Shown: positions 583 to 19,486, numbered from the stretch's first letter. The stretch: DNA of 64,000 nt from a virus (IMGVR_UViG_3300037488_000489:53712-117711), one strand, 5' to 3'. The notes: a model not told the origin generated them from the letters alone. Numbers and translations: made by a program.

Positions 583-1126
583 TTTCTTTAAGTTTATCTA
601 AATTAAGAGTTTCATTTTCTTCAAAGAACCCATCCCAAACTTCATATGAATCATCAAATTCAATATCAAGCTTATCTTCCCAAAATTGTATTAAGTCTTT
701 TGTTTTATTAAATATTCTATATTGAAGACTTACTTCGTCTTTTAATAGACCATTTCTCTTTAGCTTAACAATTTTAGGAAATATTTCTTGAAATTTAGGA
801 GAAGTTTGAGAATATTTACCTTGTTTGATTAGTTCAATATCTTTATCTAATTTAGAATTAAGCTGATACACCACTACAACATAACCATCTTCATAGTCAT
901 AATCATCTATAATAGACTTAGTACGCTCATATTCTTCATCTAGAAATTCTTTAAACTTATCTAGATTCTCTGGTTTAAAAAGAATATAAATAGAATTATC
1001 ATATTGCACTTCTCTTTCACCATCTTTTATATAACCGTTAATAAATCCATTGTCCACCAGCTTTTCTTTTCCAATACTAAGCGTGGGGACAATGAATATA
1101 CTGGTTATGGTCTTTTTTATTTCCAT
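575..1126 (-). CDS. hypothetical protein (183 aa)
   Basis: Intact ORF. Its stop overlaps the start of the upstream nuclease gene. Confidence 0.55.
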   Translation of the reverse strand: MEIKKTITSIFIVPTLSIGKEKLVDNGFINGYIKDGEREVQYDNSIYILFKPENLDKFKEFLDEEYERTKSIIDDYDYEDGYVVVVYQLNSKLDKDIELIKQGKYSQTSPKFQEIFPKIVKLKRNGLLKDEVSLQYRIFNKTKDLIQFWEDKLDIEFDDSYEVWDGFFEENETLNLDKLKENV

Positions 1127-2205
1127 TAACCTAATTTTACTACACCATTATTTAAATAGTTTTCTCTAGACACATTCCATTTGTTATTCTCAACAGCCCA
1201 TTTAAGGTCTTCTATTAAAGATGCAACACCTGGATATTGAGTTCCTTTGTATTCAAATCCATTAGCAGCATCGTTCATGTTTATATCAGACATCTGATAC
1301 ACTAATGGAGCTGTATAGTTTGTAGAGTCACATACAATAAAGGCAGGATACAATGCTACATAACCTTCACGCATTAAATCAGCAAAGGCATGTCTTATAC
1401 CTCTCCAATACAAATATCCTTGGATATAAGCCCTACGATATAAATAGTATTCTTTAAAGAATCCTTCTACAGACCAAGTACACTTCAAGTCATAAACTTG
1501 AATTGTTTTCTTCTCATGATCTATAACTACTTTATCCATCATAGATTTAAACAAATGTTCATCTACACTATATCCTTCAATTTGTATTTGATTATGTACA
1601 TCATATCTAGAACTCTTAACCAAGTTTACAATAGGAGCTGTGAAATCATTAGTCTTTAACTCTTCTACAATCTTTGTAGCATTATCTACTTCCTGCATTG
1701 TAACAACAGTTAATCCTCTACGTCTCACTTCAACCATTTCTTTGAAATACACCTCAGCATCAGTTCCTAAGAATTTACCAAGTACAGCATCTAATTTAAT
1801 CTTGAATCCAGAATCAGCATGTGCATCTCTAGTTAATTCTTCAAATGCTCTTGTAACTACACCATCTTCATTAGTACAAGCAAGTGTGTGTTTACACAAT
1901 GCTTCTACGAAATCTAACATCATAGCTGTTGGAGCATTGCTAACAACTGACATGTGGAAACGACTGTCAAACTCTTCTGGTTCTAACAATAATGTCTCAA
2001 CCACTCTACCTGTAACGGCAGCTTTACTATCTTCATCTTCTACTTGTTCATTAAGAATATACTTTTTGTGGTACTTCTTACGATTCTGAGAGAATTCTTT
2101 TAAGCTTGAACTACTGTCCATCTTAACTGCTCTGTACTGAGCTTCTGTTTTTGTTTGTCCGCTAATCATGCTGATTTTGTTTAAAGTCATTAATAATTTT
2201 TTCAC
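1126..2205 (-). CDS. PD-(D/E)XK family nuclease (RecB/Cas4/YqaJ-like exonuclease)
   Basis: Motif II/III arrangement 'KVVIDHEKKTIQVYDLKCT' (hhD ... hhDhK(T/C)) and C-terminal Q..Y motif 'QGYLYWRGI'. Replication/recombination gene neighbourhood. Confidence 0.55.
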   Translation of the reverse strand: MKKLLMTLNKISMISGQTKTEAQYRAVKMDSSSSLKEFSQNRKKYHKKYILNEQVEDEDSKAAVTGRVVETLLLEPEEFDSRFHMSVVSNAPTAMMLDFVEALCKHTLACTNEDGVVTRAFEELTRDAHADSGFKIKLDAVLGKFLGTDAEVYFKEMVEVRRRGLTVVTMQEVDNATKIVEELKTNDFTAPIVNLVKSSRYDVHNQIQIEGYSVDEHLFKSMMDKVVIDHEKKTIQVYDLKCTWSVEGFFKEYYLYRRAYIQGYLYWRGIRHAFADLMREGYVALYPAFIVCDSTNYTAPLVYQMSDINMNDAANGFEYKGTQYPGVASLIEDLKWAVENNKWNVSRENYLNNGVVKLG

Positions 2206-2404
2206 TCATTGCCCTAATTTCTCTAGGCACTTGTTTAAACCACCACCTTACTTCCATTTCATATTCACGTCCTTGGTCATCAAGTCCCCTAGGATTGATA
2301 AGCCAGAACATGTAATCCTTTCCGTCATGGTTAACAGATCCTTCATACCATATTTCAGTGAAGGATGGTTTTCTGTTAATTTTTACTGTAACTACATTTT
2401 CCAT
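2162..2404 (-). CDS. hypothetical small protein (80 aa)
   Basis: ORF in minus-strand array; no recognizable motif. Confidence 0.4.
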   Translation of the reverse strand: MENVVTVKINRKPSFTEIWYEGSVNHDGKDYMFWLINPRGLDDQGREYEMEVRWWFKQVPREIRAMSEKIINDFKQNQHD

Positions 2405-2405
2405 A

Positions 2406-2720
2406 TTAATAATCTATTTCTTCAGGGTCCCACTTATATCCATATAAGAAATAATCTGGACCACCTATTTTACTTTTATACTTATCTTTTGATGTATAAG
2501 TACGTTTACTAACTAACTCATCTGGTGTCAACACCATAAAGTCAATTCCATATTTAATTTTGATTGGTTCGTTATCATCAATAGACTTCTGTACTTCAAA
2601 GTCACGGAGATGAACTCTTCCCCCAAATTCTGATTTTACTTTAATCTCTTTCATCTTTATCTTTTTTTGTTTTAATGTTATGGCATTCTTCACATAGCAC
2701 TTGTAAGTTTTCTTGTTCAC
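2406..2720 (-). CDS. hypothetical protein (104 aa)
   Basis: ORF in minus-strand array. Confidence 0.45.
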   Translation of the reverse strand: MNKKTYKCYVKNAITLKQKKIKMKEIKVKSEFGGRVHLRDFEVQKSIDDNEPIKIKYGIDFMVLTPDELVSKRTYTSKDKYKSKIGGPDYFLYGYKWDPEEIDY

Positions 2721-3057
2721 AGAACAATCTTTCTACAAATCCTGGAAGGTCTTGTGCAGAATTCAGACTTCCTGCTGGGCAAATATGATCCACGTTGATT
2801 TGTTTCTCTGGAAACCATAATTTACAGCTATTGCATTGATATTCAAACTTTTGTCTCTTGCTGGGACCTTTATAGAGTCTGCGAGCTTTTAATTTACATT
2901 CACTAATAGGTTTCCACCATCTAGATTTCTGTCTCAATCCACTTCTAATGAAACTCCAGAATCCTGACTCTGTCATAGTACCAGCATTCCTAGTTTTAGG
3001 AACTCTTGGTTTTCTAGGAGCAGCAGGCTTTCTTTTGTTTGCTTTTTTCTTTATCAT
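2641..3057 (-). CDS. HNH endonuclease with basic N-terminal tail
   Basis: HNH signature 'CNSCKLWF...VDHICPAG...NLQVLCEECHNIKT' (C..C, DH, N, C..CH). Lys/Arg/Pro-rich N-terminus. Confidence 0.7.
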   Translation of the reverse strand: MIKKKANKRKPAAPRKPRVPKTRNAGTMTESGFWSFIRSGLRQKSRWWKPISECKLKARRLYKGPSKRQKFEYQCNSCKLWFPEKQINVDHICPAGSLNSAQDLPGFVERLFCEQENLQVLCEECHNIKTKKDKDERD

Positions 3058-3107
3058 ACTTTAATTTTAAATAACCCCTGGAGACAAAGTCCCCAGGGAT
3101 TACAAAT

Positions 3108-4679
3108 TTAATCAATTGTAACGATTCTTCCTGAAATTTCTTCTTTAATCTCATCAAGACTTCTAACAATTGTATATACTTCTACAGCTGATAAAGCAGG
3201 TAAATTGAAATCATACTTCTTGGCTTCTGCAGTGAATCCTTCTTTAGCTTTCTCAGCCAAGTTTTGCAATTCGCGAATCGCATAAGACTCATCTAATTGT
3301 AATGTATCAAAGTCTAAGTCATGTAAGATTTCTGTGGCTTCCTCACGTGGCACAGTCATAATTGGTAAATACTCATAGCATCTACCCTTAGACTCACCAA
3401 TACCTACAACCTTCATTGGATTGATTAGTACGAGAACGCTCGTATCACCACAACCTACATAATGAATCTCATCACTGGTAAAGTGTAAACCTTCAGCACC
3501 ACAATCATCAGTATTCCATCTACAGTTTTCCATAGGCATGTTTACTGGTCTACCAATACGGATGTCAAATGTTCTTGTATGAGCATCTGTGAATCTATTC
3601 TCTGCTCTATTAGGCAAATCAAGATATAACTCAGTTAAGTTACCAATCTCTTCACCATATTGAGACTCACAATTCTTGTACACTGTACCAGAACCAGAAC
3701 ACTCTGGACACTCTACATTATCACCATCGTTACAATTAGTATATCCTTCAAACCAATCATCTTCTTCATGATAAGGAACATATCCTGTACCATCACAGAA
3801 TGTACATGGCTCTAGTTCTTCAAATATAGATTTAGCAACCATTTTGTATTCACCGTCCTTTAAGAACACTAAATAATCATCAGGCTTCTTCTTCCATACA
3901 GCTTTCACTTTATTGTAAGCATTACTTACAAAGTGTACAAGCTCAGTAGATCCATGAAGTGTAACAACATTACGAAGAGCTACAAAGAATCCTTGCTTAG
4001 TGATGCTAAAGCTATTCTTCTTTAAGAAGTTATATAACTTATCAGCAACCTCAGCTCTTGGATTCAAGCAACACCACATAAAGAAACGCTTAAGTGCTTG
4101 ATACTCTTCATCTTCTATTACAAGAGCATTCATTTCATCTATATCAGCCATTCCATTAAAAGAATAACTACCAATGATTTCTAAGAACTCTTCTACCATC
4201 AAAGGTGGAATGCTTCTATTGATTCCTTTAAGATATAAACTACCGTGTTTCATCTCAAAATCATCAAACTTAGCTAGGAATTCAGCACCTTTTTGAACAG
4301 CCTTAGCTTTTTCATACTCAGCTTCAGCTTTTCTTCTTGCATCTTTAACTTCCTGCGTACTAACAAGATCAAATAAACAAGCCTCTGTTGTACATCCTCT
4401 AGCAAGATTGAAATCATCAGAAGTTGCTGGAGATTTAGTAATAATGTTACCATCATTCATTACAATAGTCAATGTATCATTAACCATTTTAATGTTTAGA
4501 TAAGGCTTATTTTGTAATGTTGTATTTTCTGTAGTGGTTGAACTCCATTGATAAGGAGAAGAAAGGGTTTGAGCCCCCTCTTCATTATCTAATTCATTGA
4601 ACGCTTGTTCAATTTTGTTTTCTACTACTTTTTCAATTGTGCGTTCTATAGCACTTTTAAACCATTTTAGACTTAACAT
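3108..4679 (-). CDS. hypothetical protein with DnaJ-type CxxCxGxG zinc-finger repeats (523 aa)
   Basis: Two canonical CxxCxGxG motifs 'CTFCDGTGYV' and 'CPECSGSGTV' plus extra Cys pairs. Immediately downstream of the GHKL ATPase gene. Confidence 0.55.
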   Translation of the reverse strand: MLSLKWFKSAIERTIEKVVENKIEQAFNELDNEEGAQTLSSPYQWSSTTTENTTLQNKPYLNIKMVNDTLTIVMNDGNIITKSPATSDDFNLARGCTTEACLFDLVSTQEVKDARRKAEAEYEKAKAVQKGAEFLAKFDDFEMKHGSLYLKGINRSIPPLMVEEFLEIIGSYSFNGMADIDEMNALVIEDEEYQALKRFFMWCCLNPRAEVADKLYNFLKKNSFSITKQGFFVALRNVVTLHGSTELVHFVSNAYNKVKAVWKKKPDDYLVFLKDGEYKMVAKSIFEELEPCTFCDGTGYVPYHEEDDWFEGYTNCNDGDNVECPECSGSGTVYKNCESQYGEEIGNLTELYLDLPNRAENRFTDAHTRTFDIRIGRPVNMPMENCRWNTDDCGAEGLHFTSDEIHYVGCGDTSVLVLINPMKVVGIGESKGRCYEYLPIMTVPREEATEILHDLDFDTLQLDESYAIRELQNLAEKAKEGFTAEAKKYDFNLPALSAVEVYTIVRSLDEIKEEISGRIVTID

Positions 4680-4691
4680 GTTTTTTGTTTT

Positions 4692-7052
4692 TTAAATTGT
4701 TTGTAATTCTTCAATTGTGTCTTCTGTCAATACTTCTTCCAAGGATGCATCCTCATTGAGCTTTATTGTGTAGTGCTCAAGGTTCACCTTGTGTTTATTA
4801 TATTTAAATAGATCAACATACGCTTTTAATAAGTCTTTATCTAATCCACCATAATAAGAACCTACTTGTCCCATTAATGGATTTAAGAACGTGAGCTTTT
4901 TAAATACTTCTTCCACCTGCTTGTACACTACTAGTATCTCCTGATCAAACAAGTTTTGATCTAAAGCTAATTCTAAAATTGCTTCTTTAGTTGTACTGTC
5001 ACAATAAGGTCTAGCATACTTATTACTATATTGTCTTATCACTTCTAACTTATCATAAAGATCTGTAGATATCTGTTTAACAATCTCAGTTCTTCTAAAA
5101 GTTTGACTATAAGTGTTTACCATCTTCTCAACGAGAAGTTGTGTAGCCATTGTTCTAAATGGTCTGTTTTTACCTTCCATAAATTTTTCTAATGTTATCC
5201 AGTTATGTAAATCTGCTTTCTGTAAGTTATCTATTGTAGCTTGTGCAACAATAACAAAGTTTGCTTGGTCACTAAATACAGACCAAAGCTTATCTAGCTT
5301 CTCTCTTTGTTCTTCTTTAGTATATACATGCAGTTTATTAACTTTATGAACATCTTCTAATTTAAATGTTGTAGGAACAAACTTAGAATATCTATCAGAA
5401 TATGTAATCTCTGTCTTGGTACCAACCTTACCAGAGAATTCACCTTTCATTCTAACCTTCTTAATACCATTCACTGTTACAGGATTAGATAACACCTTCA
5501 TTCTTTTAGCTTTCTGAGCATCTATCCATGTCTGTGGAATCTCAATAGCATCTACATCAATAAAATCTTTAGAATATAAACTAATTACATACTGGAATTC
5601 TGTGATGAGTTGTCTCCATTGACTCTTTGGATAGTTCTTAAGACTTAGAATAGAATGATAATACTTATTGTAATCAACAGATTCACCTTTCATTAATTGA
5701 AAAGGTTTTTCTTTTTTTACAAATAAGTGACACTTGCTGCTATCACCAAGTAAGCTTCTCATGTAATCTTGCTTATTCTTAGCAAGTCTATCAGAGAATA
5801 GATAAACATTACCAGCATTGTAAGAACCAATGTCTTGAATTCTTAGGTTACCACCCCAATAATTCTTAGCATTATTGAATCTGTTTCCTTGGTATCTAAA
5901 CTTTATTTGATACTCAGCTAACATGTATTCCTTGTTATGCTCAGCCATTCTCTTAAGATCTAACAACTCTACACCTTCAAGTTTAGGTTGTTTTAAAGGA
6001 ATAGTTGCATACTTAAGAAGCTCGTCAATCTCAATTCTATCTTCTTCTTTTCTATAAAAGCTTGGTAAAGATTTACGTCTATCTCCATAAAAGCTCATAA
6101 TAGAATTAATATCAGCTTTATCAGAAATTGATTCATTGAACTTCTCCATGAATACATCTGCCACCTGAGCTAGCTTTTTAAGAATAACTTGTTTAGCTTC
6201 CTGTGTATATCTGATAGCCTCTCTATTTGGTGTAGGAAACAATCCATCACTAAGACTAAAACGTAAAGCTATTTTGATATTAATCCTTTCAATACCAAGC
6301 TTCTCCCAGTCAATTGGATAGCTAACATTGTCCAAACATAAATGCATGTAATTGTTAGTAGCTATACTAGAGAATTGGAAATGCTCAGCTCTATGAATTG
6401 TGAAATCATTACTAACAGCATAACTGATGCTATTATCTACATCAAAGTATACATTCTCAAAATAAGCTAATTGCTCTTTAATCTTTTGAGTGAAACTGTG
6501 TCTATCATAATAGTTTACAGGTACAATCACCTTAACACCGTTTGGCTCTTCTGTAGCCTTTTCGTACAACAAGTCAATACTATTTGTATCTTCTCCTTCA
6601 TACATCATATACTTGCGTTCCATACCATCTTTTCTAGCTACAAAGTAGAAGCTAGAACTGTAAGCTAGTGGAGCTTTGAAACCTAAGCCCATCATACCTA
6701 ACTCTGTATTGCTATTACGCTTGGTTGATTTACCATACTTACTGATAATGTTAACTACATCATCTGCATCTAAACCAATACCAAAGTCTTCAACAGCAAA
6801 TTCATATGTATCTGCCTGATTATTTCTCTTAAATGAGACAATAATAGGTCTGTCACTCCCAGCTCTTCTGTGACTATCTAGTGCATTGGATGCACATTCT
6901 CTGATAGTAGAGCCTACTGAATCTGAATATAGATTCTTACTTAACATCTGCATCAATACTTGAGCAGAATCTAAGTCTAATGACATTTTCACAGTTTCCT
7001 GTGACTCTCCGTCTTGGAGGATGTGTGCTTCTGTTTGTTTTTCTAAGATCAT
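4692..7052 (-). CDS. GHKL (Bergerat-fold) ATPase, MORC/Hsp90-like, 786 aa
   Basis: N-box 'ECASNALDS', G1 box 'VEDFGIGLDADD', G2 box 'GMMGLGFKA' (GxxGxGFK, MORC/HATPase_c_3-like), all in the N-terminal 130 aa. Confidence 0.65.
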   Translation of the reverse strand: MILEKQTEAHILQDGESQETVKMSLDLDSAQVLMQMLSKNLYSDSVGSTIRECASNALDSHRRAGSDRPIIVSFKRNNQADTYEFAVEDFGIGLDADDVVNIISKYGKSTKRNSNTELGMMGLGFKAPLAYSSSFYFVARKDGMERKYMMYEGEDTNSIDLLYEKATEEPNGVKVIVPVNYYDRHSFTQKIKEQLAYFENVYFDVDNSISYAVSNDFTIHRAEHFQFSSIATNNYMHLCLDNVSYPIDWEKLGIERINIKIALRFSLSDGLFPTPNREAIRYTQEAKQVILKKLAQVADVFMEKFNESISDKADINSIMSFYGDRRKSLPSFYRKEEDRIEIDELLKYATIPLKQPKLEGVELLDLKRMAEHNKEYMLAEYQIKFRYQGNRFNNAKNYWGGNLRIQDIGSYNAGNVYLFSDRLAKNKQDYMRSLLGDSSKCHLFVKKEKPFQLMKGESVDYNKYYHSILSLKNYPKSQWRQLITEFQYVISLYSKDFIDVDAIEIPQTWIDAQKAKRMKVLSNPVTVNGIKKVRMKGEFSGKVGTKTEITYSDRYSKFVPTTFKLEDVHKVNKLHVYTKEEQREKLDKLWSVFSDQANFVIVAQATIDNLQKADLHNWITLEKFMEGKNRPFRTMATQLLVEKMVNTYSQTFRRTEIVKQISTDLYDKLEVIRQYSNKYARPYCDSTTKEAILELALDQNLFDQEILVVYKQVEEVFKKLTFLNPLMGQVGSYYGGLDKDLLKAYVDLFKYNKHKVNLEHYTIKLNEDASLEEVLTEDTIEELQTI

Positions 7053-7054
7053 AA

Positions 7055-7417
7055 TTAAAAGTTTACTTCTATGTTAAATTCTTTAAGGATTTCTTTTGCT
7101 TTAATAATGTTTTCTATGTCTACTTGTTCTGTAATGTTATCTCTATTTAATTTGAGAATTCTTGTGTCCCTTGGTGTATTTACATAACTCTTCCAAATTC
7201 TAGTGAGTTTCCAAGGTTTTTCAAAATCATTATATTGTGCATCTTTATGGGATTTTTCCCACCAGTTTTTAGACTCAACTACTCCTGAAGGTGTAAAGTA
7301 CTGAAATGTACCACCTCTTCCTTGACCATAATATATACCAACACTAAAATCATTACCATTAGCTATGGCTACTAAATCACCTTTGTGGATATCTCCACCT
7401 ACTTTTACGTTATACAT
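7055..7417 (-). CDS. hypothetical protein (120 aa)
   Basis: ORF in minus-strand array; Gly-rich centre. Confidence 0.5.
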   Translation of the reverse strand: MYNVKVGGDIHKGDLVAIANGNDFSVGIYYGQGRGGTFQYFTPSGVVESKNWWEKSHKDAQYNDFEKPWKLTRIWKSYVNTPRDTRILKLNRDNITEQVDIENIIKAKEILKEFNIEVNF

Positions 7418-7429
7418 AATTGTTTTTGT

Positions 7430-8149
7430 TTAAAATGGTGTACCATCTAACCATTCAATTTGAAAATTATTGTTGTCTTTAATCACCTTGTTTACCATTC
7501 TGAATACATCTCCAGATTCCCATTCTGTATTCTTATAGCTAGCTGATGCAGGGTGTGTAGTTGTGAAACTCCATACAAATGGATTTGCATATCTAGCATA
7601 CTGTGCAGCATCTTTACCTAAGAATATATAAGGAACTTGTTGAGGATTTAAAATCTCCTCTATGACATATTTAGTGAATGGTTCCCATAGTTTGATATGA
7701 CTACCTGCTTTGTTAATCTCAGTGGTTAGAGATGCATTAAACATCAATACACCCTGGTGAGCTAGATAGCTTACATCTGGATTAGTCTTGTCACAATAGG
7801 CACATAGTCCATTGTACACTTCTCTTTCAATTGCCCCATAGAACTGCTCTAATGAAGGCTGTAATATACCAGTGGTAGAACAGCCCATTAATAAACCATC
7901 TGCTACAGGAGAACCTTGTTTAAGTGTATGATATGGAGCCATACCCATCATTACAATCTTTAGCTCATCTAGTGGAGTCTCCATAAAACATCTATAGACA
8001 TTAGAAGACAGAGGAGCAATTTTCTTGCCCCTCTGACTCTCTGACTTAAGAAATTTATAGATTTCATCACAAGCTTCGCTCTCAATAAATGGTCTCATCT
8101 TTAAGTGCCAAGACTCATGAAACTGATCTTTAAATTTTTCCCAATTCAT
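7430..8149 (-). CDS. uracil-DNA glycosylase family-1 (UNG) homolog with substituted catalytic aspartate
   Basis: Collinear UNG motifs: 'FHESW' (FGESW), 'GMAPYH' (GQDPYH, Asp to Ala), 'LAHQGVLMFNASLT' (WAKQGVLLLNAVLT), 'GSH', 'WEPFT' (WEQFT), 'IFLGKDAAQYA' (FLLWGSYAQKK), 'THPASASY' (AHPSPLSVY), 'IEWLDG' (IDWKEL). Confidence 0.75.
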   Translation of the reverse strand: MNWEKFKDQFHESWHLKMRPFIESEACDEIYKFLKSESQRGKKIAPLSSNVYRCFMETPLDELKIVMMGMAPYHTLKQGSPVADGLLMGCSTTGILQPSLEQFYGAIEREVYNGLCAYCDKTNPDVSYLAHQGVLMFNASLTTEINKAGSHIKLWEPFTKYVIEEILNPQQVPYIFLGKDAAQYARYANPFVWSFTTTHPASASYKNTEWESGDVFRMVNKVIKDNNNFQIEWLDGTPF

Positions 8150-8150
8150 A

Positions 8151-8915
8151 TTAAAATATTGATAATTGATTAAGTACTATTTCTCCTTGCTCATAATCCA
8201 TTGGTGTTACATCATATGCATAATCATTAAAGAACTTGTGTGCTTTGATGTGACTCTCCATCCATAAACCTGGATGTACTTCCTTCATAGCAAAGGTGGT
8301 GTAGTTATACAACTCCCATAAGCTATCAGGTGCACCATAATCATGTGTAGGATTATTCATCTCTCTGCTGATAATGTTCATCTGTGTAGACTGGATGAAC
8401 TGTTCTTCAATCATCATTCTACCAATCAACTCAGCTTTTGTACGTCTAGTGATTTCCACTTGCTTCATTTGTTCACGTTGAGTTTGCATCAACTTGAATG
8501 AGTCTGCAGCTGTCTTGATATAATCTCCAATAGCCTGTGGTGTGAATGATTGAATTTCACCAACGTGCTTCTTCTTGAATGCACCATAGTCACCTGATAC
8601 ACAACCATTAGAACATACTAATATACGTGTACCAATAGCAAACTTTAATGTAAGTTGCTTGTTATAGCTATTCTGCCAACCAACTTGTAATTGCATTTCA
8701 CTATCTGCTACGTTACTGATAGAGAATCTACCGTTAGCAATTTGTCCATTAGCAGCTGCTGAATATGTTTGTTTATCTAAAATGAAACCAGCTTTGCTAA
8801 TACCATCTAATGTAAGGTCTATTAATTGACCATGTGAAACAGGCTTATAAGTTCTTGTCTGTACAGGAACTGGTGTGTTGAGAATTAACTCTTTTGTTGT
8901 GTTATAAACTTCCAT
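8151..8915 (-). CDS. hypothetical protein (254 aa)
   Basis: ORF in replication module; no motif recognized by eye. Confidence 0.55.
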   Translation of the reverse strand: MEVYNTTKELILNTPVPVQTRTYKPVSHGQLIDLTLDGISKAGFILDKQTYSAAANGQIANGRFSISNVADSEMQLQVGWQNSYNKQLTLKFAIGTRILVCSNGCVSGDYGAFKKKHVGEIQSFTPQAIGDYIKTAADSFKLMQTQREQMKQVEITRRTKAELIGRMMIEEQFIQSTQMNIISREMNNPTHDYGAPDSLWELYNYTTFAMKEVHPGLWMESHIKAHKFFNDYAYDVTPMDYEQGEIVLNQLSIF

Positions 8916-9919
8916 TATAATAACTGTTTAGTTTTTAAATATTTTTCTATTGTTTCTAATCCGTGGACTTTTGCAAGATCTGCCCAATCTTTTATCCCTT
9001 CAGCTAAATACTTACGTGGGACGTTAGCATAACCAAAATCAAACAGTTTTGTAATCTGTTGTGAGTTTGCTACACCTGTGACATCACTGTCAAAACTTAA
9101 TATCTGGCTATCAGAATTAGCTTTTAGGTATTCTACATTCTCTTCTGAGAAACAACCTATACCTTCATTCTGTACAGCACAGCTACATGGAAATATCTTT
9201 TTCATCACCATATAGTCTTTCTTACTCTTATTGATAAATGCTACGCTGCAGTTAATTATATCTTCTTTACCGTCCATTACGGTGATTGGAACATTATTAG
9301 GAATCCATTTGTGTTTCTTGTCTTCAAATGGCCTATATACCTTCCAATATTGTCCTTCATATAGATAACCAAATGTCATTTCTTCATCTTTAAGTGCAAA
9401 CTTGCTCTTATTAAGAAATACATTCTTTATAGCATATACATTATTATCTCTAAGGTCTTGAATGTCTATGTGATATTGATTCCAATACTCAAGTTCTCTT
9501 TTAGTGAACTTCCTGGTACTCACCTGGATGATAGAGTATCTCTTTTCTATCTGAGGCTGCTTGTATTCAGAAACTATCTTCTTATACTCTTCTGTAGATC
9601 TACCATCACTGATGCCCAACCCAAAGTCTTTATCTATAAGCTTTAGTGTGTCTATCATGTTTGGTAGCATAAACAGCTTTTGTACAAAGTTAAAACAGTC
9701 ACCTCGCAAGCTTGTATCAGCAAAGTCTATAAATGATATGTAACCAAGTTTGTTACCAATAACAAATGATGGATTATTCTCTTTCCTAAATGGAGAATAT
9801 GTAACCCTATTAAGTTTCCAATCATGATCTGGCATATAGAATCTAAATATATCATATTCAGATATCTTGCTGAGCACCGCTTCTATAGACAATTTTGTCT
9901 TCTTTACTCCTTTAATCAT
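8915..9919 (-). CDS. putative primase-like protein (DnaG zinc-binding-domain-like N-terminus, degenerate)
   Basis: 'YSPFRKENNPSFVI' resembles DnaG 'CPFHDEKTPSF'. Following 'ISFIDFADTSLRGDCFNFV' resembles 'CFGCG..GD...F'. Zinc ligands mostly lost. Sits between helicase and ATPase genes. Confidence 0.35.
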   Translation of the reverse strand: MIKGVKKTKLSIEAVLSKISEYDIFRFYMPDHDWKLNRVTYSPFRKENNPSFVIGNKLGYISFIDFADTSLRGDCFNFVQKLFMLPNMIDTLKLIDKDFGLGISDGRSTEEYKKIVSEYKQPQIEKRYSIIQVSTRKFTKRELEYWNQYHIDIQDLRDNNVYAIKNVFLNKSKFALKDEEMTFGYLYEGQYWKVYRPFEDKKHKWIPNNVPITVMDGKEDIINCSVAFINKSKKDYMVMKKIFPCSCAVQNEGIGCFSEENVEYLKANSDSQILSFDSDVTGVANSQQITKLFDFGYANVPRKYLAEGIKDWADLAKVHGLETIEKYLKTKQLL

Positions 9920-9979
9920 GATTCATGTTTAATAAAAAAGCCCCACATTTCTGTGAGGCTTTTGTTGAGGATTTATATT

Positions 9980-10855
9980 TTAATAGTCACCATCATCTTC
10001 AGCAATCACCTTATCAGATGCTACCAGATTGTCATCAGAGTTATAGTCTCTCAAGTCTTTTAATGTATAAAAGTCTTTACAACCATACTCGCCTGTAACG
10101 TTAATTACAAAACGCTCGTGAGGTTTCAAATCTTTAGATTTCTTAGCACGTATTGCTTTCAAGTTATCAGAAGCACTATAATCAAGTAATCTGAAGTTCT
10201 TTAATGCATATGCAGGTAAGAATGCTTTATTGAAGATAGTTTGATATTCTTTAGGACCATCTTCTTTCTCTACAGTTTTGATAGCGGCTAATGCAACTAC
10301 GTTTGTAGCGTATTCACCACCCACTTGACTCTTTAAGTCTTTAACATTACCTTTCATTAACTTAGACCACTCAATCTGTAATGTAGATTCAGCATCACGT
10401 AAGTCAAGATTACCTAACCACGTACGTAAGAAGTTATAAAGATCTTCTTCACCTACATAAGCTACACGGTATTCTCTACCTGAGAACCATGTTGGTAAGT
10501 TGTTTACGTCATCAGCCCAAGAACACATACCTACAGCATTAATATACTGCTTCTTAGTAGCATCTTTGTTTTCTTTCTCTTTGTTTTCTAAGAAGAAAGT
10601 CACCTTGAACTTATCTTTGTTCTTAACTTCTTCTAACCAAACATCTACACGTAAAATAGTGTTACCATTTTGGTTCTTACTTAGATACTCAACAGCTTTA
10701 CTGTCTTCTTTCAATTCCATTCCTAGAATGTCCTTGTACTCTTCCATAGTTGGATTGATTGAAACTACTTCAGCTTCAAATAAACCTACTTTTTTCGCAA
10801 ACTCTTTGTTGTCAAACTGTTGCGATTCTCTTTTTTTGCCTCCAATGTTACTCAT
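9980..10855 (-). CDS. hypothetical protein with acidic C-terminal tail (possible SSB-like)
   Basis: 291 aa ending '...VIAEDDGDY'. Acidic tail and position next to a RecA-fold ATPase suggest an ssDNA-binding role. No OB-fold motif verified. Confidence 0.3.
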   Translation of the reverse strand: MSNIGGKKRESQQFDNKEFAKKVGLFEAEVVSINPTMEEYKDILGMELKEDSKAVEYLSKNQNGNTILRVDVWLEEVKNKDKFKVTFFLENKEKENKDATKKQYINAVGMCSWADDVNNLPTWFSGREYRVAYVGEEDLYNFLRTWLGNLDLRDAESTLQIEWSKLMKGNVKDLKSQVGGEYATNVVALAAIKTVEKEDGPKEYQTIFNKAFLPAYALKNFRLLDYSASDNLKAIRAKKSKDLKPHERFVINVTGEYGCKDFYTLKDLRDYNSDDNLVASDKVIAEDDGDY

Positions 10856-10879
10856 TGTTTTCTCTGTTTTTGTTTATGA

Positions 10880-11551
10880 TTAATTATAATACTCGTCTAT
10901 TGCATTTACAACTGATTGTAAATTGTTTGGAATCTTTACTTCTGTAAACATACCATCTGGACTCTTAGCTGGATACTTTCTAAAACGATTAGTTAAGAAG
11001 TTATAGTTAGCTGAGCCATCTTTGTTGTCTTCAACATGTGTGTATAAGCACACAGTTAATAAACCTTCAAGAACAATCTGATTATCAATCAACTTACCTG
11101 CTGTCTTAATCTTGTATCCTATAATCTCACCACCGTCCTCAATAGTCTCAGGGTGTGTAAAATAGAACACTTTTAAGTCATCACGTAAGCGTCTTGCTTC
11201 TCTGAATAATTCCACCATATCTCTAGCCATTAGAGTGAACTTGGTAAAACCAACCTCTGTAGCTTTAGATACAATATTGAATCCCATAATGTAATTAGAG
11301 TCTTCAATAATGATGTTCTTGATGTGAGGAGCTTTATCTGAAATCACTCGTAATAACTTTGTGATTTCAATTGCATCATCTACCTCTTTGTAGTTCTTGT
11401 TCTCCAAATTATACAATTTCTCTGCTCCCTTGAAAGGTAATTCTTTCTTAGCAACGTTGATGATGTACGTTTCTTTTGGATCTAAATGTTTGATTGATGT
11501 GGACTTTCCTGTACCAGTGGCACCCACAATACCAATTAATTTGCTTGACAT
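10880..11551 (-). CDS. P-loop NTPase (possibly Sak4-like RecA-fold ATPase)
   Basis: Walker A 'GIVGATGTGKST', Walker B 'NIIIEDSNY'. About 220 aa, as in phage Sak4-type core recombinases. Confidence 0.5.
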   Translation of the reverse strand: MSSKLIGIVGATGTGKSTSIKHLDPKETYIINVAKKELPFKGAEKLYNLENKNYKEVDDAIEITKLLRVISDKAPHIKNIIIEDSNYIMGFNIVSKATEVGFTKFTLMARDMVELFREARRLRDDLKVFYFTHPETIEDGGEIIGYKIKTAGKLIDNQIVLEGLLTVCLYTHVEDNKDGSANYNFLTNRFRKYPAKSPDGMFTEVKIPNNLQSVVNAIDEYYN

Positions 11552-11554
11552 ATT

Positions 11555-11767
11555 TTAACTGTTTTGTTCGTCCAAAGATACATTAATTTCATCAGTTTTC
11601 AAAATATTTGTTTTAGATTTTAATATTTCTGGATTAGCTATAACTGATAAATAGAAGGCTTCTGCAGTATCTTTATTTGCAAACCATTTAATATTATTAC
11701 CATCAATTTTTACTAAAAACATAGTACCACTTCCTATGGAAGTTTCTTCAATTAATTCTATTTTCAT
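11555..11767 (-). CDS. hypothetical small protein (70 aa)
   Basis: ORF; 4-nt overlap with upstream gene. Confidence 0.4.
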   Translation of the reverse strand: MKIELIEETSIGSGTMFLVKIDGNNIKWFANKDTAEAFYLSVIANPEILKSKTNILKTDEINVSLDEQNS

Positions 11768-12864
11768 ATGTATTTTATTTTGTTTTTGTCAAAGAACTCT
11801 AACGCTTTGTTGAGCCATTTCTTTTCCACTTCTTCCGTGGAACACACTATGTATATGTGTGCTTTTTTGTCTGGTGTATTATACTCCATAGCCATGCATC
11901 TATTAATCTTTTGTGCTAGGTTTTCACCATTGCTATCAAAGTAATTGATAATCACACGGTTAAGTGGTTTATACGTAACACCAGTGTTTCCAATCTTTAC
12001 AACAGCAAGGTGATTACCCTCACCATTAGCAAAGTCTTCAAACACTTCTTTATCTCCTGCTTTACTATGATATACAGGTATACCTAATTCATCAGCTGTT
12101 TTAGTAACACCACAGAATACTAATACACGCTCATCTTTGTGCTTTTGTAGTAGTCTCTGAGTTAAACGAAGCTTTGCTACACTGTTTTGTATGATTCTCA
12201 TTCTGGCTAAACGTAAGAACATAGTTGCCTTACCTTGTCTTTCCATCTGATCTATCACCCAGCCATACGCATCAAATTGCTTCTTTTCAGTTTTCCACTT
12301 ACCTTTGTAGTTGTATTTTATTACATCATCTAAAGGAGTGGTAATTACAGTGATTTCATAGTCTGTTATAACACCTTCTTCAATAGCCTGCTCAATAGGA
12401 TATTCAGCTAATACATTCAGTCCAAGCTCTTCTCTAAGTGTTTTTTCTGTATAGCTAGATAGCGTACCAGTTAAACCAAGCACACTGATGCATTTTAGGT
12501 CCTTTACAGCCTCTATTTGTGCTTCTGACAGCAAATGTATCTCATCTAGTATTACTAGGTCAAATACACCACCTGTGTGCTTTTTAATAGATAAGTGCGT
12601 AGTGTACGTAATATTGGAATTCTTATACTTTCTAGCCTTGAAATCCTCTTCCCAAGATGTTTTAATCTTTAAGTCAGGATAGGCTATTAGTATATTGATA
12701 TCCTTATCTAGTTTTTCCAGGATGTTGATAGTTGTATATATCTTACCAAATCTAGGACATAGATTAAGAATACCAAACTCACCATGCTCTAAGAATATAT
12801 TAGCAAACTCTTGCTGTCTATTATCCCTTAAAGTAGGCTTCTGGTTCTTCTGGAGGGTTGCCAT
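11764..12864 (-). CDS. superfamily-2 helicase-like ATPase (DExH)
   Basis: Motif I-like 'CPRFGKIYT', motif II 'LVILDEIHLL' (DEIH), conserved 'GLTGTLS'. Replication cluster. Confidence 0.5.
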   Translation of the reverse strand: MATLQKNQKPTLRDNRQQEFANIFLEHGEFGILNLCPRFGKIYTTINILEKLDKDINILIAYPDLKIKTSWEEDFKARKYKNSNITYTTHLSIKKHTGGVFDLVILDEIHLLSEAQIEAVKDLKCISVLGLTGTLSSYTEKTLREELGLNVLAEYPIEQAIEEGVITDYEITVITTPLDDVIKYNYKGKWKTEKKQFDAYGWVIDQMERQGKATMFLRLARMRIIQNSVAKLRLTQRLLQKHKDERVLVFCGVTKTADELGIPVYHSKAGDKEVFEDFANGEGNHLAVVKIGNTGVTYKPLNRVIINYFDSNGENLAQKINRCMAMEYNTPDKKAHIYIVCSTEEVEKKWLNKALEFFDKNKIKYI

Positions 12865-13033
12865 GGTTTATAATTATTGTATGTGACCAAAATAACCATT
12901 CAATGTTAATAGCTACATACGGATCAAATTCCTGTATGTTGTTCATAATAGCTACAGTTGGTATCAGGACTACCTGCCACCAATGGCTATCTTTGCTTGG
13001 TAAAGTGTTGTACACTTTGCTTGTTATTCTCAT
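12821..13033 (-). CDS. hypothetical small protein (70 aa)
   Basis: Short ORF between helicase genes, overlapping the downstream gene start. May be non-coding. Confidence 0.25.
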   Translation of the reverse strand: MRITSKVYNTLPSKDSHWWQVVLIPTVAIMNNIQEFDPYVAINIEWLFWSHTIIINHGNPPEEPEAYFKG

Positions 13034-13036
13034 GTT

Positions 13037-14107
13037 TTATTTGTTTAGGAAATACGTTTTATTTAATACAGACTTATAATCATCTTCAGTCATGTCTCTT
13101 TGTCTTGGTAGCTCTTTGAACATACCAATTTGACCTAGAAAACCTAAGCCTATTCTTACATCATCCTCACCATAACTATTCTTAATTAGTCTTAGTGATC
13201 TAAAATACTTGGCACCATAATCATCTGTTAGTCTATTAAGATCATAACCAGATGGGTCTGCCACCTTATATCTCATAGGGTCAAACAATGCTAATACAAC
13301 ATCAGCATCATCCTGTGTAGAACTTGATTCTTTAAAATCTTCTAATCTTGGTTCAACATCACCGTTCTTTAATCTCATTTGATTAGAGATGTCACGATTG
13401 AACTGACTAACAACAACTGGACTATATCCATACATATCTCTAGCATATCTTAGCTCATCAGACATCTTGTCAATAGCTTGCTTCTTTGTAGGCTGGTCTT
13501 TAGTAATCTTTAATAGACCAATATGATCTATAACTACAATAGTCACTTCATTCTCGTTATTAGGAATGTATTTCTTATTATACTGATCAAGTTGTACTAT
13601 CTCACCATTAGCTAAAGCATGAGCTTTTAGCTCTTTAGCAATACCTACAGCATTCTCTGGACCATCAATGATTGTCATCACCTCATTCATCTCTCCCATG
13701 TAATCTTCATACATTAAGAACAGATCATGTTCGTCATGAGTCATCTTATCAGTCCAACCAAGCATTTTATTAACAGGAATGATTATCCCTTGGTCTAAAA
13801 ATATTTTACGAGACACCCATTTAGCAAACTTGTAAGTTCTACTACGCTCCATGGATCTGTATATAATCTTCAGTTTAATATTTGTCTTGTTCTCTTTGCT
13901 TATGTACCAATCAAATGGATTAAGAACATATGCATCATCAATGAATGAAGTCTTACCTGAACCAGTTAAGCCACCCACTAGTGTATACATAGACTTTCTA
14001 ATGCCTATATATCTGTTCAATCTATTAAAGCCCATAGGAATACCGTTATTCCTACCATCCATACCTTCTTGAACTGCTTTCTTTAAATCGTCAAAGCTAT
14101 TGCTCAT
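13037..14107 (-). CDS. DnaB-like replicative helicase (RecA-fold C-terminal domain)
   Basis: Walker A 'GGLTGSGKTSF', Walker B 'TIVVIDHIGLL'. Length and pattern like DnaB/gp4 helicase C-terminal domain. Confidence 0.55.
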   Translation of the reverse strand: MSNSFDDLKKAVQEGMDGRNNGIPMGFNRLNRYIGIRKSMYTLVGGLTGSGKTSFIDDAYVLNPFDWYISKENKTNIKLKIIYRSMERSRTYKFAKWVSRKIFLDQGIIIPVNKMLGWTDKMTHDEHDLFLMYEDYMGEMNEVMTIIDGPENAVGIAKELKAHALANGEIVQLDQYNKKYIPNNENEVTIVVIDHIGLLKITKDQPTKKQAIDKMSDELRYARDMYGYSPVVVSQFNRDISNQMRLKNGDVEPRLEDFKESSSTQDDADVVLALFDPMRYKVADPSGYDLNRLTDDYGAKYFRSLRLIKNSYGEDDVRIGLGFLGQIGMFKELPRQRDMTEDDYKSVLNKTYFLNK

Positions 14108-14295
14108 ATTTTACTTTTTTCAAATTCTTCTTGTGTTGTGAAATTAACGTGTTCTTCGCAATCTTCACACCATCTATCTCCACTATCGTCACTACAGTCA
14201 GCTGCAAACTCACCAGAGTTTACATACTGCCAAACTTTTAATTGGATAGAATCTGCTGATCCACATTTTTCACATACCAAAATTTCATTTTTCAT
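14104..14295 (-). CDS. zinc-ribbon protein (63 aa)
   Basis: 'CEKCGS...CEDCEEH' four-Cys arrangement. Confidence 0.45.
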   Translation of the reverse strand: MKNEILVCEKCGSADSIQLKVWQYVNSGEFAADCSDDSGDRWCEDCEEHVNFTTQEEFEKSKI

Positions 14296-14918
14296 ATATC
14301 TGTGCCTCCTCTTACTATTGGTTCTTCAACCACGGTTTTACCTTCTCTGATTAATTCAATGAAGGGCTCAAATGTTCTTTGATTTAAATACGTAAGACTA
14401 TTCTGCATAAACGTTAACCTATTGGTTTTTGTCTTAACAGAATTCTCTTTTTTCTGAAGCACTTCATATTCTAATGCTGCTATCATTTCCTTGATAGTAT
14501 ATTCACCTTCAGCTAGAATAGCGTAAAGCTTGACTTTACAGTCATCTTTCTTTACACGCATGCTTCTTGTACCTGTGAATGATTGTTTTTTGTGTGTAAA
14601 TGTGTCTGTACCTGGATAAGCTTTCCACCACTCATCAAAATCATTAGCGTCTTTTTTCTGCTTAACGAACTTTGTTTCTGGTGTACCATCTTCATCTAGA
14701 AATCCTAATACAGATTTACCAATGACAGTGAGCTTAAAAGATTCACTAATTAAACCTTTTCTTCTCACTGTCTGGCAAAGCATTTGTAGTTTTGGATCTG
14801 AACACATTTGTTCCACATCAACACCTTCTTCAACAAGTTTAAGGAAATAGATTATATCTAGCGTATAGCCAGCTTTAATAATCTCCTCAAAATGGTAGTG
14901 CGTTACTGTGATGTTCAT
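14292..14918 (-). CDS. hypothetical protein (208 aa)
   Basis: ORF in array. Confidence 0.5.
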   Translation of the reverse strand: MNITVTHYHFEEIIKAGYTLDIIYFLKLVEEGVDVEQMCSDPKLQMLCQTVRRKGLISESFKLTVIGKSVLGFLDEDGTPETKFVKQKKDANDFDEWWKAYPGTDTFTHKKQSFTGTRSMRVKKDDCKVKLYAILAEGEYTIKEMIAALEYEVLQKKENSVKTKTNRLTFMQNSLTYLNQRTFEPFIELIREGKTVVEEPIVRGGTDI

Positions 14919-15123
14919 GTTGTTTGTCTAATATGTTATGTTTGTCAACAACTGTTATTATTGCTGGTTTTCTATGTAATTCTCTATGAATTTCATCAGA
15001 AATCAACTGTTTTTCCTCATGCAAATATATGAAATCTTTCAGAGCTTCACGCTCCCAGTCCTCATTAATTTGTAGGTTTTTTTTCATCTTTTTTATATTT
15101 TTCATTGTTCCAAAAATAACCAC
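14887..15123 (-). CDS. hypothetical small protein
   Basis: ORF; annotated start overlaps upstream ORF by 59 nt, so the real start is probably an internal Met (MKNIKKMKK...). Confidence 0.35.
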   Translation of the reverse strand: MVIFGTMKNIKKMKKNLQINEDWEREALKDFIYLHEEKQLISDEIHRELHRKPAIITVVDKHNILDKQHEHHSNALPF

Positions 15124-16375: not shown

Positions 16376-16386
16376 AATTAACTGTT

Positions 16387-16952: not shown

Positions 16953-17193
16953 CTATGTTTGTACTACCTATTGAATATCTAAGATCGTACTTCTCTCTGA
17001 AAAATCTAAATGCCTGTCTATATGTAGGAGCGTGGATTAGATTGGTCATATTAATAGACATGTTTCTATATATATTCCATTTTAATTCTAAATCCTCATC
17101 TTTCTCTCCTAAATAATGTGCAGCACATTTTTCATTAAAGCCTAACTCTTTAAGGTCTTTTGATTCTTGATATGGTAAAAATTCTTTTTCCAT
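16831..17193 (-). CDS. hypothetical protein (120 aa)
   Basis: ORF directly downstream of the polymerase gene (1-nt overlap). Confidence 0.4.
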   Translation of the reverse strand: MEKEFLPYQESKDLKELGFNEKCAAHYLGEKDEDLELKWNIYRNMSINMTNLIHAPTYRQAFRFFREKYDLRYSIGSTNIVVCHTPVNDYHTTQLLQNNASYEDAELATIKFFIEKAKQL

Positions 17194-19145
17194 TAGAATA
17201 ATGTCATTTGATTGGGATTAATAATAATTTTTCTTTTTTTACCTTCTAATTGTATCTTATGTACAATACGCTCAGCACGCTCTATATAATATGCGTGATT
17301 AATGTTATCCAGAGGATGGTCTTTGGTTAATTTATTACAAACTGTCATTAGCCATTCACCTGCTTCTACTTGACTCACATCTGCTGCATTAGTTGTACAA
17401 TCAGGATTTTTTATCTTTAAGAGTTTCTCTCCTGTATTAGATACATAATAACGAATCAACTTGTTGTACACTGTTCTTTTAGCACCAGCTACACCTTCAT
17501 AATGAAAGTCTTTACTAGCCTTCTGCCTTAATGCAAAATCATATATATTATTATGATTGGTGATAGTGTCAGCAATAGGTATATTGTGAACAAAATACTG
17601 TTCAAGAGCCATAGGAATAACACGACCAGACTTATTTTTATGTAGCTCAAAATCTGTGAGGAAATCTCCTTTCTTTTTAATTTCTCCATTTGTTTTAATT
17701 GCTAAATAGTCATTTACTGTTGAGAATATAATCTTAGCATAGTCTGTACGCTCTAGTTCATATGTAGTTAAATCCATCCACCACTTATTAAGCTCATGCA
17801 TCTTATCAATCTTGTTCTTATCAATCTGAATTGTAACACCATCTGTGTTAGCTGATATAACATGTATACCATTCAATTCATACTGTTCAATCAACATTAA
17901 TAGACTCAATTCACCTGTAATAGTAGTGAACATAGTTAGTTGTCTATCATAGATCCAGTTCTGCATATCAGAGCTTTTACCATACACAGAGTTAACTGCT
18001 AACTTCAATGCTCCAACAATACCTGCTATCTTCTTATCCTTCTTAGCTAAAGGTTTGAGTTCTAGTCTCTTCTCAAACATCTGTTTGTATCCTCTAAGAA
18101 ACTCTTTACCTAAATGCTGTGGATATTTACCATTGTTAATGATAATAGCTGGATAGTATGAACTAACATCCCAATCAATGATTTCTACATCTTCATCAGC
18201 CTCAAATATCTTGGGCTTGTTTTCTGTATGTAAACCACCCTTGGCAAATGTATATGTATTATTATAGAACACTAATGACTCTTTAAAATCATCAGTCATT
18301 GTAAAGATTTGTTTCTTTACATGCTTTAAGAATGCTTGCAGCTCTGGTGTCTGGAATGTTACATAATCAGCAATACAATTTCTAGCTTTAACATCTTTAC
18401 GAAAGTATCCTTTCTTTGGTAGATCGCTGTATTGTATACCTTTCTCTGAACAATAATACTTCTTAATCATTTCGTCACCAATCTTACTATCAGAATAGTT
18501 AAGACATGGTATACCAAACTCTTCTTCAATATCTTGTCTGAGCTCTATTTGATTATTACCCTTATATAATGGATGTTCAGTGTTACCTGTTGTTACCAAA
18601 TAGAATTCATAAGTGGCATATATATCATTGCGACAGTAATCAATAGTTAGTTCTATTTCATCATCAGTCATGTTAGTCTTTGTGTGATGGATAGGCATCT
18701 CTTCAATGTTCTCTAGATCCATCTCAAACTCTAATCGTTTCAATGATACACGTCTGTTCTTATTATCATAATGATTAACTCTAAACAAATCTATTTGCTT
18801 ATTAGATAACCATTCTTCCCTATATTCTGGGAATACATCATAGTTTGCATCATGTATTATGTCTGCAGCCTTCTGAGCTATCAATGCACATACATCTAGT
18901 GCACCTATCTCATGCCAGTTCTGATGATTGCGTATGATCCACTCAACTACTTGACTGTCAAAGCGTAGATTGTTATAACCTACCCAATAGAAGTCTTTAT
19001 AGTCTTCTGTGAATCTAACAAACGCATCAATCTGGTTTGTATTTTTACTCACCTGGAATTCATGCCATTGCTGTGTTTCAGGATTATATATACAAACTAG
19101 AAACAGCTCCTGCATGGTTTCTATGTCATAGATGAGTACGTTCAT
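17193..19145 (-). CDS. family-B DNA polymerase (compact, 650 aa) with 3'-5' exonuclease domain
   Basis: Exo I 'LIYDIET', Exo II 'YNNLRFDSQ', Exo III 'YCRNDIYATYE', motif A 'DWDVSSYYPAII' (DxxSLYP), motif B 'KLAVNSVYGK' (Kx3NSxYG), motif C 'ISANTDGV' (NTDG in place of DTDS). Confidence 0.85.
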   Translation of the reverse strand: MNVLIYDIETMQELFLVCIYNPETQQWHEFQVSKNTNQIDAFVRFTEDYKDFYWVGYNNLRFDSQVVEWIIRNHQNWHEIGALDVCALIAQKAADIIHDANYDVFPEYREEWLSNKQIDLFRVNHYDNKNRRVSLKRLEFEMDLENIEEMPIHHTKTNMTDDEIELTIDYCRNDIYATYEFYLVTTGNTEHPLYKGNNQIELRQDIEEEFGIPCLNYSDSKIGDEMIKKYYCSEKGIQYSDLPKKGYFRKDVKARNCIADYVTFQTPELQAFLKHVKKQIFTMTDDFKESLVFYNNTYTFAKGGLHTENKPKIFEADEDVEIIDWDVSSYYPAIIINNGKYPQHLGKEFLRGYKQMFEKRLELKPLAKKDKKIAGIVGALKLAVNSVYGKSSDMQNWIYDRQLTMFTTITGELSLLMLIEQYELNGIHVISANTDGVTIQIDKNKIDKMHELNKWWMDLTTYELERTDYAKIIFSTVNDYLAIKTNGEIKKKGDFLTDFELHKNKSGRVIPMALEQYFVHNIPIADTITNHNNIYDFALRQKASKDFHYEGVAGAKRTVYNKLIRYYVSNTGEKLLKIKNPDCTTNAADVSQVEAGEWLMTVCNKLTKDHPLDNINHAYYIERAERIVHKIQLEGKKRKIIINPNQMTLF

Positions 19146-19268
19146 ATAATTTTATTAATTGTTCAACTTTTAAATATACAGTGGGAAATTGTGATGGTTT
19201 ATACCATTTATCATCCTTATACCTAACATAATTGTTTTTTGTTATCCATTCTAATAAATCTAACATAA

Positions 19269-19484: not shown

Positions 19485-19486
19485 AA

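Follow-up and report, generated by a model that had tools for sequence, protein, structure and literature searches.

What function is left to a uracil-DNA glycosylase (UDG) that has been deprived of its catalytic aspartate? Few DNA-repair enzymes are as conserved and as well understood as UNG, the family-1 UDG, whose catalytic Asp is regarded as a defining feature. The question is raised by a stretch of viral DNA, IMGVR_UViG_3300037488_000489:53712-117711, which comprises 64,000 nucleotides (hereafter the window) and in which a complete open reading frame (ORF) of 239 amino acids encodes a homologue of UNG without this residue. The source of this UDG-like gene is a freshwater crAss-like phage, and the protein that it encodes is free-standing and unfused. 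The loss of the Asp is fixed and is under purifying selection. Our leading reading, based on comparison with known systems and held at somewhat less than an even chance, is that the protein may be an accessory factor of the phage replisome that recognizes uracil and has attenuated cleavage or none.

Several searches place the protein in the UNG family. Among the PDB sequences searched with phmmer, 58 UNG chains were matched (top match 3cxm, E = 6.7e-17). The NCBIfam Ung equivalog models match the ORF at up to E = 6e-34, all five under their curated cut-offs (best score 117.8 bits versus a cut-off of 162 bits), and Pfam PF03167 (UDG superfamily) is marginally over its gathering threshold (24.6 versus 24.3 bits). 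The protein has the alpha/beta UDG fold with family-1 topology and consequently does not belong with the small acidic DNA mimics of the Ugi, p56 or SAUGI type. A second, canonical UDG was not found in the window by tblastn with either Escherichia coli Ung or the ORF as the query. The initial annotation of this locus had described a collinear family-1 homologue in which the Asp of GQDPYH is replaced (GMAPYH), and this description is confirmed by three independent alignments that agree on the placement of motif A (Table 1). Human Asp145 corresponds to Ala71 (codon GCT, 7937-7939), Gln144 to Met70 and the Leu272 wedge probably to Ala203; no member of the phage family has the Leu wedge. Tyr147, Asn204 and His268 of the human enzyme are retained as Tyr73, Asn138 and His199, respectively. 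Neither Asn138 nor Tyr73 varies in the clade, His199-Pro200 is also invariant, and the Pro-Ser loop (Q97-P98-S99) and Gly178 of the Gly-Ser loop are kept and are invariant or nearly so. Relative to family-1 UNG there is a four-residue insertion after PYH, and the motif B loop is one residue shorter, with residues 202-206 at a predicted local distance difference test (pLDDT) score of <50 in the model.

Two further residues of the active site were considered in connection with the missing Asp. The Phe of GLCFSV that stacks on uracil had also been noted as changed, and it is indeed Met88 in the window protein, in which this segment reads GLLMGC. The change is real, but its tie to the loss of the Asp did not hold: Met or Leu is also common at this position in Asp-bearing relatives, so that it may be a tolerated change, and the Phe-to-Met change as a part of the inactivation was rejected. 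Asp84, which is the sole invariant acidic residue in the nearby sequence and is aligned to human His154, was a candidate for a relocated catalytic acid and was likewise rejected because Asp-bearing relatives conserve it to the same extent (50 of 63, versus 39 of 41 Asp-less ones); no different acidic residue at the catalytic place, which would have contradicted the initial annotation, was found in the alignments. As a separate observation, Asp180 (codon 7610-7612) lies in the loop equivalent to the Gly-Ser-Tyr phosphate pincer of UNG, and position 180 is acidic in 65% of the Asp-less and 33% of the Asp-bearing representatives.

The Asp-less protein is widespread. It occurs in identical form on nine independent contigs from different samples, its ORF is intact with a conserved start, and more than 1,200 homologues were found at E = 1e-5, with 70 invariant columns across 51 aligned homologues. 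None of the 120 closest metagenomic homologues (67-92% identity) has an Asp: the motif is GMCPYH in 96, GMAPYH in 18 and GFCPYH in six, which puts Cys at the Asp position in 102 and Ala in 18. When 1.84 billion cluster representatives were searched exhaustively with HMMER, 128 clusters were recovered at E < 1e-30, and the residues were surveyed in the best 150 representatives at 50% identity. The Asp column of this survey contains D in 64 representatives, C in 24, S in 22, E in 14, A in five, N in four and G in four, the others having further residues, and the neighbouring pocket is largely retained (Pro146 in 93%, Tyr147 in 95% or 142, Asn204 in 93% or 140 and His268 in 82%). All four pocket residues are intact in 36 of 43 Cys/Ser/Ala forms and in 59 of 63 Asp forms; their retention in the former indicates that the pocket is still under selection. 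Just two of the 12 forms with G, K, P, T or V at the Asp position have an intact pocket. The family forms a gradient from canonical forms, through Asp-less forms with an intact pocket, among which is the window protein, to fully degenerate ones. Asp-less clusters also stand alone beside Asp-bearing ones (P0176, P0178 and P0194), and these isolated losses, together with the G/K/P/T/V class that is devoid of the pocket, indicate that catalysis has repeatedly been dispensed with in the family. A neighbour-joining tree combined with parsimony gave a count of at least 16 switches between Asp and non-Asp, which is rough at 35-45% identity and is not relied on here.

The history of the Ala form itself is informative with respect to the side chain. 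The Ala lineage is nested among Cys forms, and two substitutions separate its GCT codon from the TGT/TGC codons of the sister lineages. The ratio of nonsynonymous to synonymous substitution rates (dN/dS) is 0.05-0.14 within the Ala lineage, 0.2 between the Ala and Cys lineages and 0.05-0.23 overall. This two-step replacement at low dN/dS indicates that the side chain at position 71 is not chemically essential, while the protein is.

The origin of the Asp-less form is suggested by the slot that it occupies in related phages. A comparative set of 80 diverse loci was obtained by searching IMG/VR with an eight-sequence alignment; P0214 or P0198 alone as the query retrieved nothing from IMG/VR. Forms of the type G-x-[C/S]-P-Y-H are present in 24 of the 80 loci, an additional Ser variant (L120) reads NHSPYC, and those Asp-less loci with enough flanking DNA have the gene order of the window. 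Asp-bearing homologues are found in the same slot: one (L124, GQDPYP) lies 1 kb after the primase with a B-family DNA polymerase (PolB) and DnaB present, and two others (L127 and L136, GQDPYY) directly follow the DUF932 gene, which also adjoins Asp-less homologues. The gene lies in the replication module in every case, arranged as primase-DUF932-UDG-like in the window, primase-UDG in phage FpV4 and primase, UDG-like and PolB in locus L115. From their position, we infer that these Asp-bearing homologues are orthologues of the window gene; a further, large group with GQDPYP comes from a different type of phage. The cultured relatives crAss001 gp74, DAC15, cr111_1, IAS virus and FpV4 keep GQDPYP. 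Most simply read, the Asp-less protein is the descendant of a UDG of the replisome module that was kept in place after the Asp had been lost. The automatic label 'uracil-DNA glycosylase' carried by Asp-less homologues (JGI names) is probably misleading.

In UNG, Asp145 positions and activates the water and stabilizes the oxocarbenium ion, His268 stabilizes the uracil anion, Asn204 and Tyr147 provide the uracil specificity, Ser169, Ser247 and Tyr248 pinch the phosphates and Leu272 fills the gap in the duplex (PMC1936997; PMC2699497; PMC8730318). Replacement of Asp145 dramatically lowers the activity of the human enzyme (PMC8730318). By analogy, the UNG-derived phage protein would still engage DNA and recognize a flipped-out uracil, with Tyr73 excluding thymine, Asn138 reading N3-H and O4 and His199 contacting O2; the carboxylate that positions the water and stabilizes the oxocarbenium ion is gone. 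Since the carboxylate is absent, the glycosidic-bond step should proceed orders of magnitude more slowly, if at all, and with the pocket and pincers kept the protein should bind DNA, capture uracil and cleave slowly or not at all. The earlier suggestion of an impaired uracil-DNA binder is reasonable given the conserved uracil pocket. We propose that the protein may act as an accessory DNA-scanning, uracil-sensing subunit with the PolB/primase/helicase replisome, in which binding would be selected and excision would not. That Cys, Ser and Ala replace one another at position 71 while purifying selection persists speaks against any chemical function of the side chain, and the repeated loss of the Asp from a gene that is retained under purifying selection points indirectly to a putative replication role independent of glycosylase chemistry. 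The absence of the Leu wedge would be compatible with a single-stranded template or with partner-assisted flipping, as with poxvirus D4. A bolder and rather unlikely extension is that the clade G-[LMYF]-[CSA]-P-Y-H-T, which is old and abundant, is a non-cleaving, PolB-associated 'uracil reader', or that its Cys/Ser forms carry out a Cys/Ser-His(-Asp/Glu) chemistry; in the reader version, template uracil would be sensed ahead of the fork and no abasic sites would be made.

Several observations weigh against an attenuated or non-cleaving replisome accessory protein. No homologue of A20, the protein that bridges D4 to the polymerase in poxviruses, was recognized among the neighbours of the UDG-like gene, a negative of little weight. 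The PolB module is of one type alongside both Asp-bearing and Asp-less forms, so that no gene of the neighbourhood explains the loss of the Asp. The near-complete conservation of His199 and His74 can be accounted for equally well by residual catalysis and by binding. UDGs of families 2, 3 and 5, in which the Asp is replaced (by Asn in MUG/TDG and SMUG1, and by Ala in family 5), are slow enzymes, and the speed of UNG is such that a 10^3-10^4-fold loss leaves MUG-like and possibly useful rates; the protein should therefore not be assumed to be 'dead'. A working glycosylase, which would be slow and MUG/TDG-like or would have its water positioned by His74, possibly aided by an acidic residue 180, is the strongest competitor, although we consider it to be doubtful. 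Leaving-group stabilization by His199 would carry most of the catalysis in such an enzyme, and the pocket and His199 are kept almost as well as in the Asp-bearing forms. The columns most closely tied to the loss of the Asp (70, 74 and 75) belong to one loop, and residue 180 is more often acidic. The position of His148 is occupied by His in 26 of 41 Cys/Ser/Ala forms versus four of 63 Asp forms, which usually have Pro; the Glu forms pair with Ala or Ser there, which suggests a steric coupling that preserves the catalytic geometry, and in human UNG Asp145 is described as the activator of the water, 'with possible assistance from His148' (PMC8730318). However, the [C/S/A]PYH forms are mutual nearest neighbours in 33 of 44 cases, and the link with His may therefore reflect a single old clade, whereas independent recent losses of the Asp (GDAPYS, LQCPYA and GMSPYP) have occurred without His. 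His74 as a proven compensation is weakened by this nearest-neighbour comparison and is retained only within the rival explanation. Canonical UNG, moreover, possesses both Asp and His and yet is crippled by replacement of the Asp alone (PMC8730318). The free interchange of Cys, Ser and Ala also argues against a glycosylase that depends on side chain 71.

The remaining explanations are less probable still. The protein might be a protective decoy that occupies uracils in replicating phage DNA and so keeps host Ung and apurinic/apyrimidinic (AP) endonuclease from fragmenting it, a functional analogue of Ugi and p56, or a shield for a uracil-rich genome, both of which we regard as improbable. An intact pocket without the catalytic Asp is how a competitive binder is expected to look, and Ugi-UNG and p56-UNG complexes are among the PDB matches of the window protein. 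Phages neutralize host UDG with Ugi or p56; in contrast to these inhibitors, a decoy of the present kind would compete for DNA and would involve no DNA mimicry, and shielding, which has to be stoichiometric, is a less efficient means than an inhibitor. The idea of a shield for uracil-containing or modified virion DNA, raised in the initial annotation, has lost ground on three counts: a dUTPase (PF00692, E = 8.5e-21) is encoded by a relative whose UDG-like protein is 99% identical, so that the phage DNA should be poor in uracil; no thymidylate-synthase/hydroxymethylase homologue that could serve base replacement was found among the window ORFs of at least 200 amino acids or the ten ORFs of the flank of a near-identical relative; and the retained Tyr73, equivalent to Tyr147, should exclude 5-substituted uracils. 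The fixed place among replisome genes and the Asp-bearing ancestry in this slot point to a role in replication, and the PADLOC defence models matched neither the UDG-like ORF nor its neighbours. A new covalent or transfer chemistry, in which Cys or Ser with His74 (and Asp/Glu180) would form a nucleophile-base pair in most relatives, either to capture the abasic sugar as UdgX does or to modify the flipped base, is highly improbable, because the window protein and 17 of its closest cluster representatives have Ala and hence no nucleophile and are nevertheless under strong purifying selection; Ala also recurs in other clusters. Least probable of all is that the ORF is a degenerating pseudogene, the product of an assembly error or a wrongly called frame, for which the missing catalytic residue and nothing further would speak, and which is refuted by the intact ORF, the nine contigs, the abundance of homologues, the invariant columns and the low dN/dS.

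Table 1. Location of the UDG-like gene, its active-site segments and other features of the window.
Feature	Position	Strand	Remark
UDG-like gene, complete ORF, 239 amino acids	7430..8149	-	Family-1 UDG (UNG) homologue without the catalytic Asp
Motif A, water-activating loop	7928..7945	-	G69-M-A-P-Y-H74 instead of GQDPYH
Beta-2 strand D84-G-L-L-M88-G	7883..7900	-	Met88 at the place of uracil-stacking Phe158
Uracil-specificity strand M-F-N138-A-S-L-T	7724..7744	-	Asn204 equivalent kept, invariant in the clade
Motif B, H199-P-A-S-A203-S	7538..7555	-	His268 equivalent kept
DUF932 protein (PF06067, E = 5.4e-8)	8151..8915	-	Directly upstream, same tight gene string
DnaG-type DNA primase	8915..9919	-	Linkage to the UDG-like gene kept in distant relatives
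Divergent B-family DNA polymerase	17193..19145	-	Same replication module; candidate partner
DnaB	13037-14107	-	Same replication module
120-amino-acid ORF	7055..7417	-	Downstream; starts 12 nucleotides after the UDG-like stop
rIIA-like gene (GHKL ATPase domain)	4692-7052	-	Downstream of the UDG-like gene
rIIB-like gene	3108-4679	-	Downstream of the UDG-like gene
tmRNA gene, full-length	20345-20758	-	Early/replication module; PolB on one side, a ParB-like gene on the other
SPFH/Band-7 domain protein	33512-34042	+	Late module
'DNA repair exonuclease' (phrog_704)	46835-48076	+	Late module
crAss tail ring protein 2	48076-48810	+	Late module
crAss tail ring protein 1	49290-50258	+	Late module

The replication module around the gene runs on the minus strand in the order PolB, DnaB, an SNF2-like helicase, Sak4, primase, DUF932, the UDG-like gene and the 120-amino-acid ORF, and continues past the latter with the rIIA-like and rIIB-like genes, an HNH gene and an exonuclease VIII-like gene. 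A single nucleotide separates the DUF932 stop from the ATG of the UDG-like gene. The PolB-like polymerase matches phrog_1252 with E = 2.8e-141 and has weak hits to NCBIfam type-B models; at E up to 0.01, neither Pfam nor the PDB sequences gave a match. The 120-amino-acid ORF is unlikely to be an obligatory partner because it is conserved in close relatives only. The rIIA-like/rIIB-like pair is kept at the same place in most relatives with Cys or Ser forms. Beyond the left end of the window, relatives with UDG-like proteins of 99-100% identity encode a class II ribonucleotide reductase (RNR), RecA, the dUTPase and a Fringe-like glycosyltransferase; the last of these (PF02434, E = 1.1e-6; L009, 15287-16018) ends this string of nucleotide-metabolism genes. 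When loci L010 and L011 are compared with L005, the RNR is 90% identical to that of the window lineage, and the UDG-like protein is just 69% identical and has Cys for Ala, which suggests that the UDG-like gene has evolved faster than its neighbours or has been exchanged.

Joined ORFs were also encountered among the homologues. One cluster (P0138), an Asp-less GLSPYH form, carries an N-terminal NADAR domain (PF08719, E = 1.3e-14), a fusion that could hint at a connection to the removal of base adducts or ADP-ribose from DNA. In L097/L099 and in P0142, a GIY-YIG homing-endonuclease ORF continues directly into a UDG-like ORF with the motif GMCPYH to give a product of 524-543 amino acids, which is probably the insertion of a mobile element upstream and no functional fusion. 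As clues to function these fusions were set aside, those of P0142 and L097 being uninformative and that of P0138 being confined to one cluster.

Judged by its genes, the window is a distant crAss-like phage. The late module contains the crAss tail ring proteins 2 and 1, PHROGs matches identify a crAss-type major head protein, portal and terminase, and a near-identical relative encodes a crAss001_48-like protein. The terminase large subunit (TerL) shows 40% identity to that of Leptolyngbya phage Lbo-JY46 and 33% to that of Cellulophaga phage phi17:2, and megablast of window positions 1-20000 against cultured phages gave no match. Relatives are very common in IMG/VR as contigs of 111-117 kb. In GTDB, the protein is found on only six contigs of metagenome-assembled genomes (Cytophagales, Sediminibacterium and others), which are probably mis-binned phage and provide a weak hint of the host at best. 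Phage-encoded transfer-messenger RNA (tmRNA) is uncommon; the window carries a full-length gene, with the tag peptide VKSQSERVAEGEAILASIFATEYALAA according to ARAGORN and a match to Rfam RF00023 of 87.1 bits (E = 3e-33). The SPFH/Band-7 and 'DNA repair exonuclease' matches in the late module have E values of 5.6e-27 and 3.3e-43, respectively.

The replacement of the Asp by Cys, Ser or Ala over a selected pocket extends to all of the 120 closest homologues and to approximately one third of the 150 nearest clusters, and it would be of consequence in either case. If the proteins do not cleave, they would be natural high-specificity uracil-DNA binders that could be used as sensors instead of engineered Asp/His mutants, and they would be evidence that phage replisomes, similarly to those of poxviruses and herpesviruses, employ a UDG structurally or for sensing. 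If they do cleave, they would reveal an Asp-independent mechanism on the family-1 scaffold.

Non-catalytic UDG modules in viral replisomes are already known, and the new element is the Asp-less, free-standing phage form, of which no description was found in the searchable open-access literature. From the typical family-1 enzymes (E. coli Ung, human UNG2 and herpesvirus UL2) the window protein differs at Asp145, Gln144, Phe158 and Leu272. The closest homologues from cultured phages, crAss001 gp74, DAC15, cr111_1 and FpV4 gp54 (approximately 28-33% identity), are encoded near the primase in a replication-module neighbourhood like that of the window protein and share with it the HPA-x-x-A motif B without Leu, but these crAss-like and Flavobacterium phage UDGs keep the Asp of GQDPYP. 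Cellulophaga phage phi14:2 g042 is a UDG homologue of a cultured crAss-like phage that has also departed from the canonical active site; it reads GKEPYR, with Glu for Asp, has no recognizable His-Pro motif B, shows 25% identity and lies in another gene neighbourhood. The poxvirus D4/E4 proteins are processivity subunits of a PolB holoenzyme, and D4, which is also without the Leu wedge, has a catalysis-independent role in processive replication within the E9-A20-D4 holoenzyme (PMC1936997). The UDG-like protein of the window likewise stands in trans to a B-family polymerase in a replication gene set, and its similarity to D4 is marginal (E of about 1e-4, in the C-terminal half); unlike it, D4 keeps the Asp, is an active glycosylase and needs the poxvirus-specific A20 bridge. 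The UNG of gamma-herpesviruses is a structural element of the replisome (PMC5934625). In N4-like phages, according to a recent preprint, a UDG domain without catalytic residues serves as a replisome module fused to the N-terminus of PolA (bioRxiv 10.1101/2025.03.26.645540, citing Czernecki et al.); compared with the domain as it is described there, the window protein is free-standing, belongs to a PolB module, has lost only the Asp and keeps the uracil pocket. In the PolA-UDG of SP15-like and SPO1-like phages (YerA41 and phiLo), the UDG is placed so that it can inspect the single-stranded template before the polymerase reaches it, which provides a structural model for replisome-coupled reading of uracil (bioRxiv 10.1101/2025.03.26.645540). 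A reader of the bolder kind considered above would be a trans-acting analogue of the uracil read-ahead pocket of archaeal PolB.
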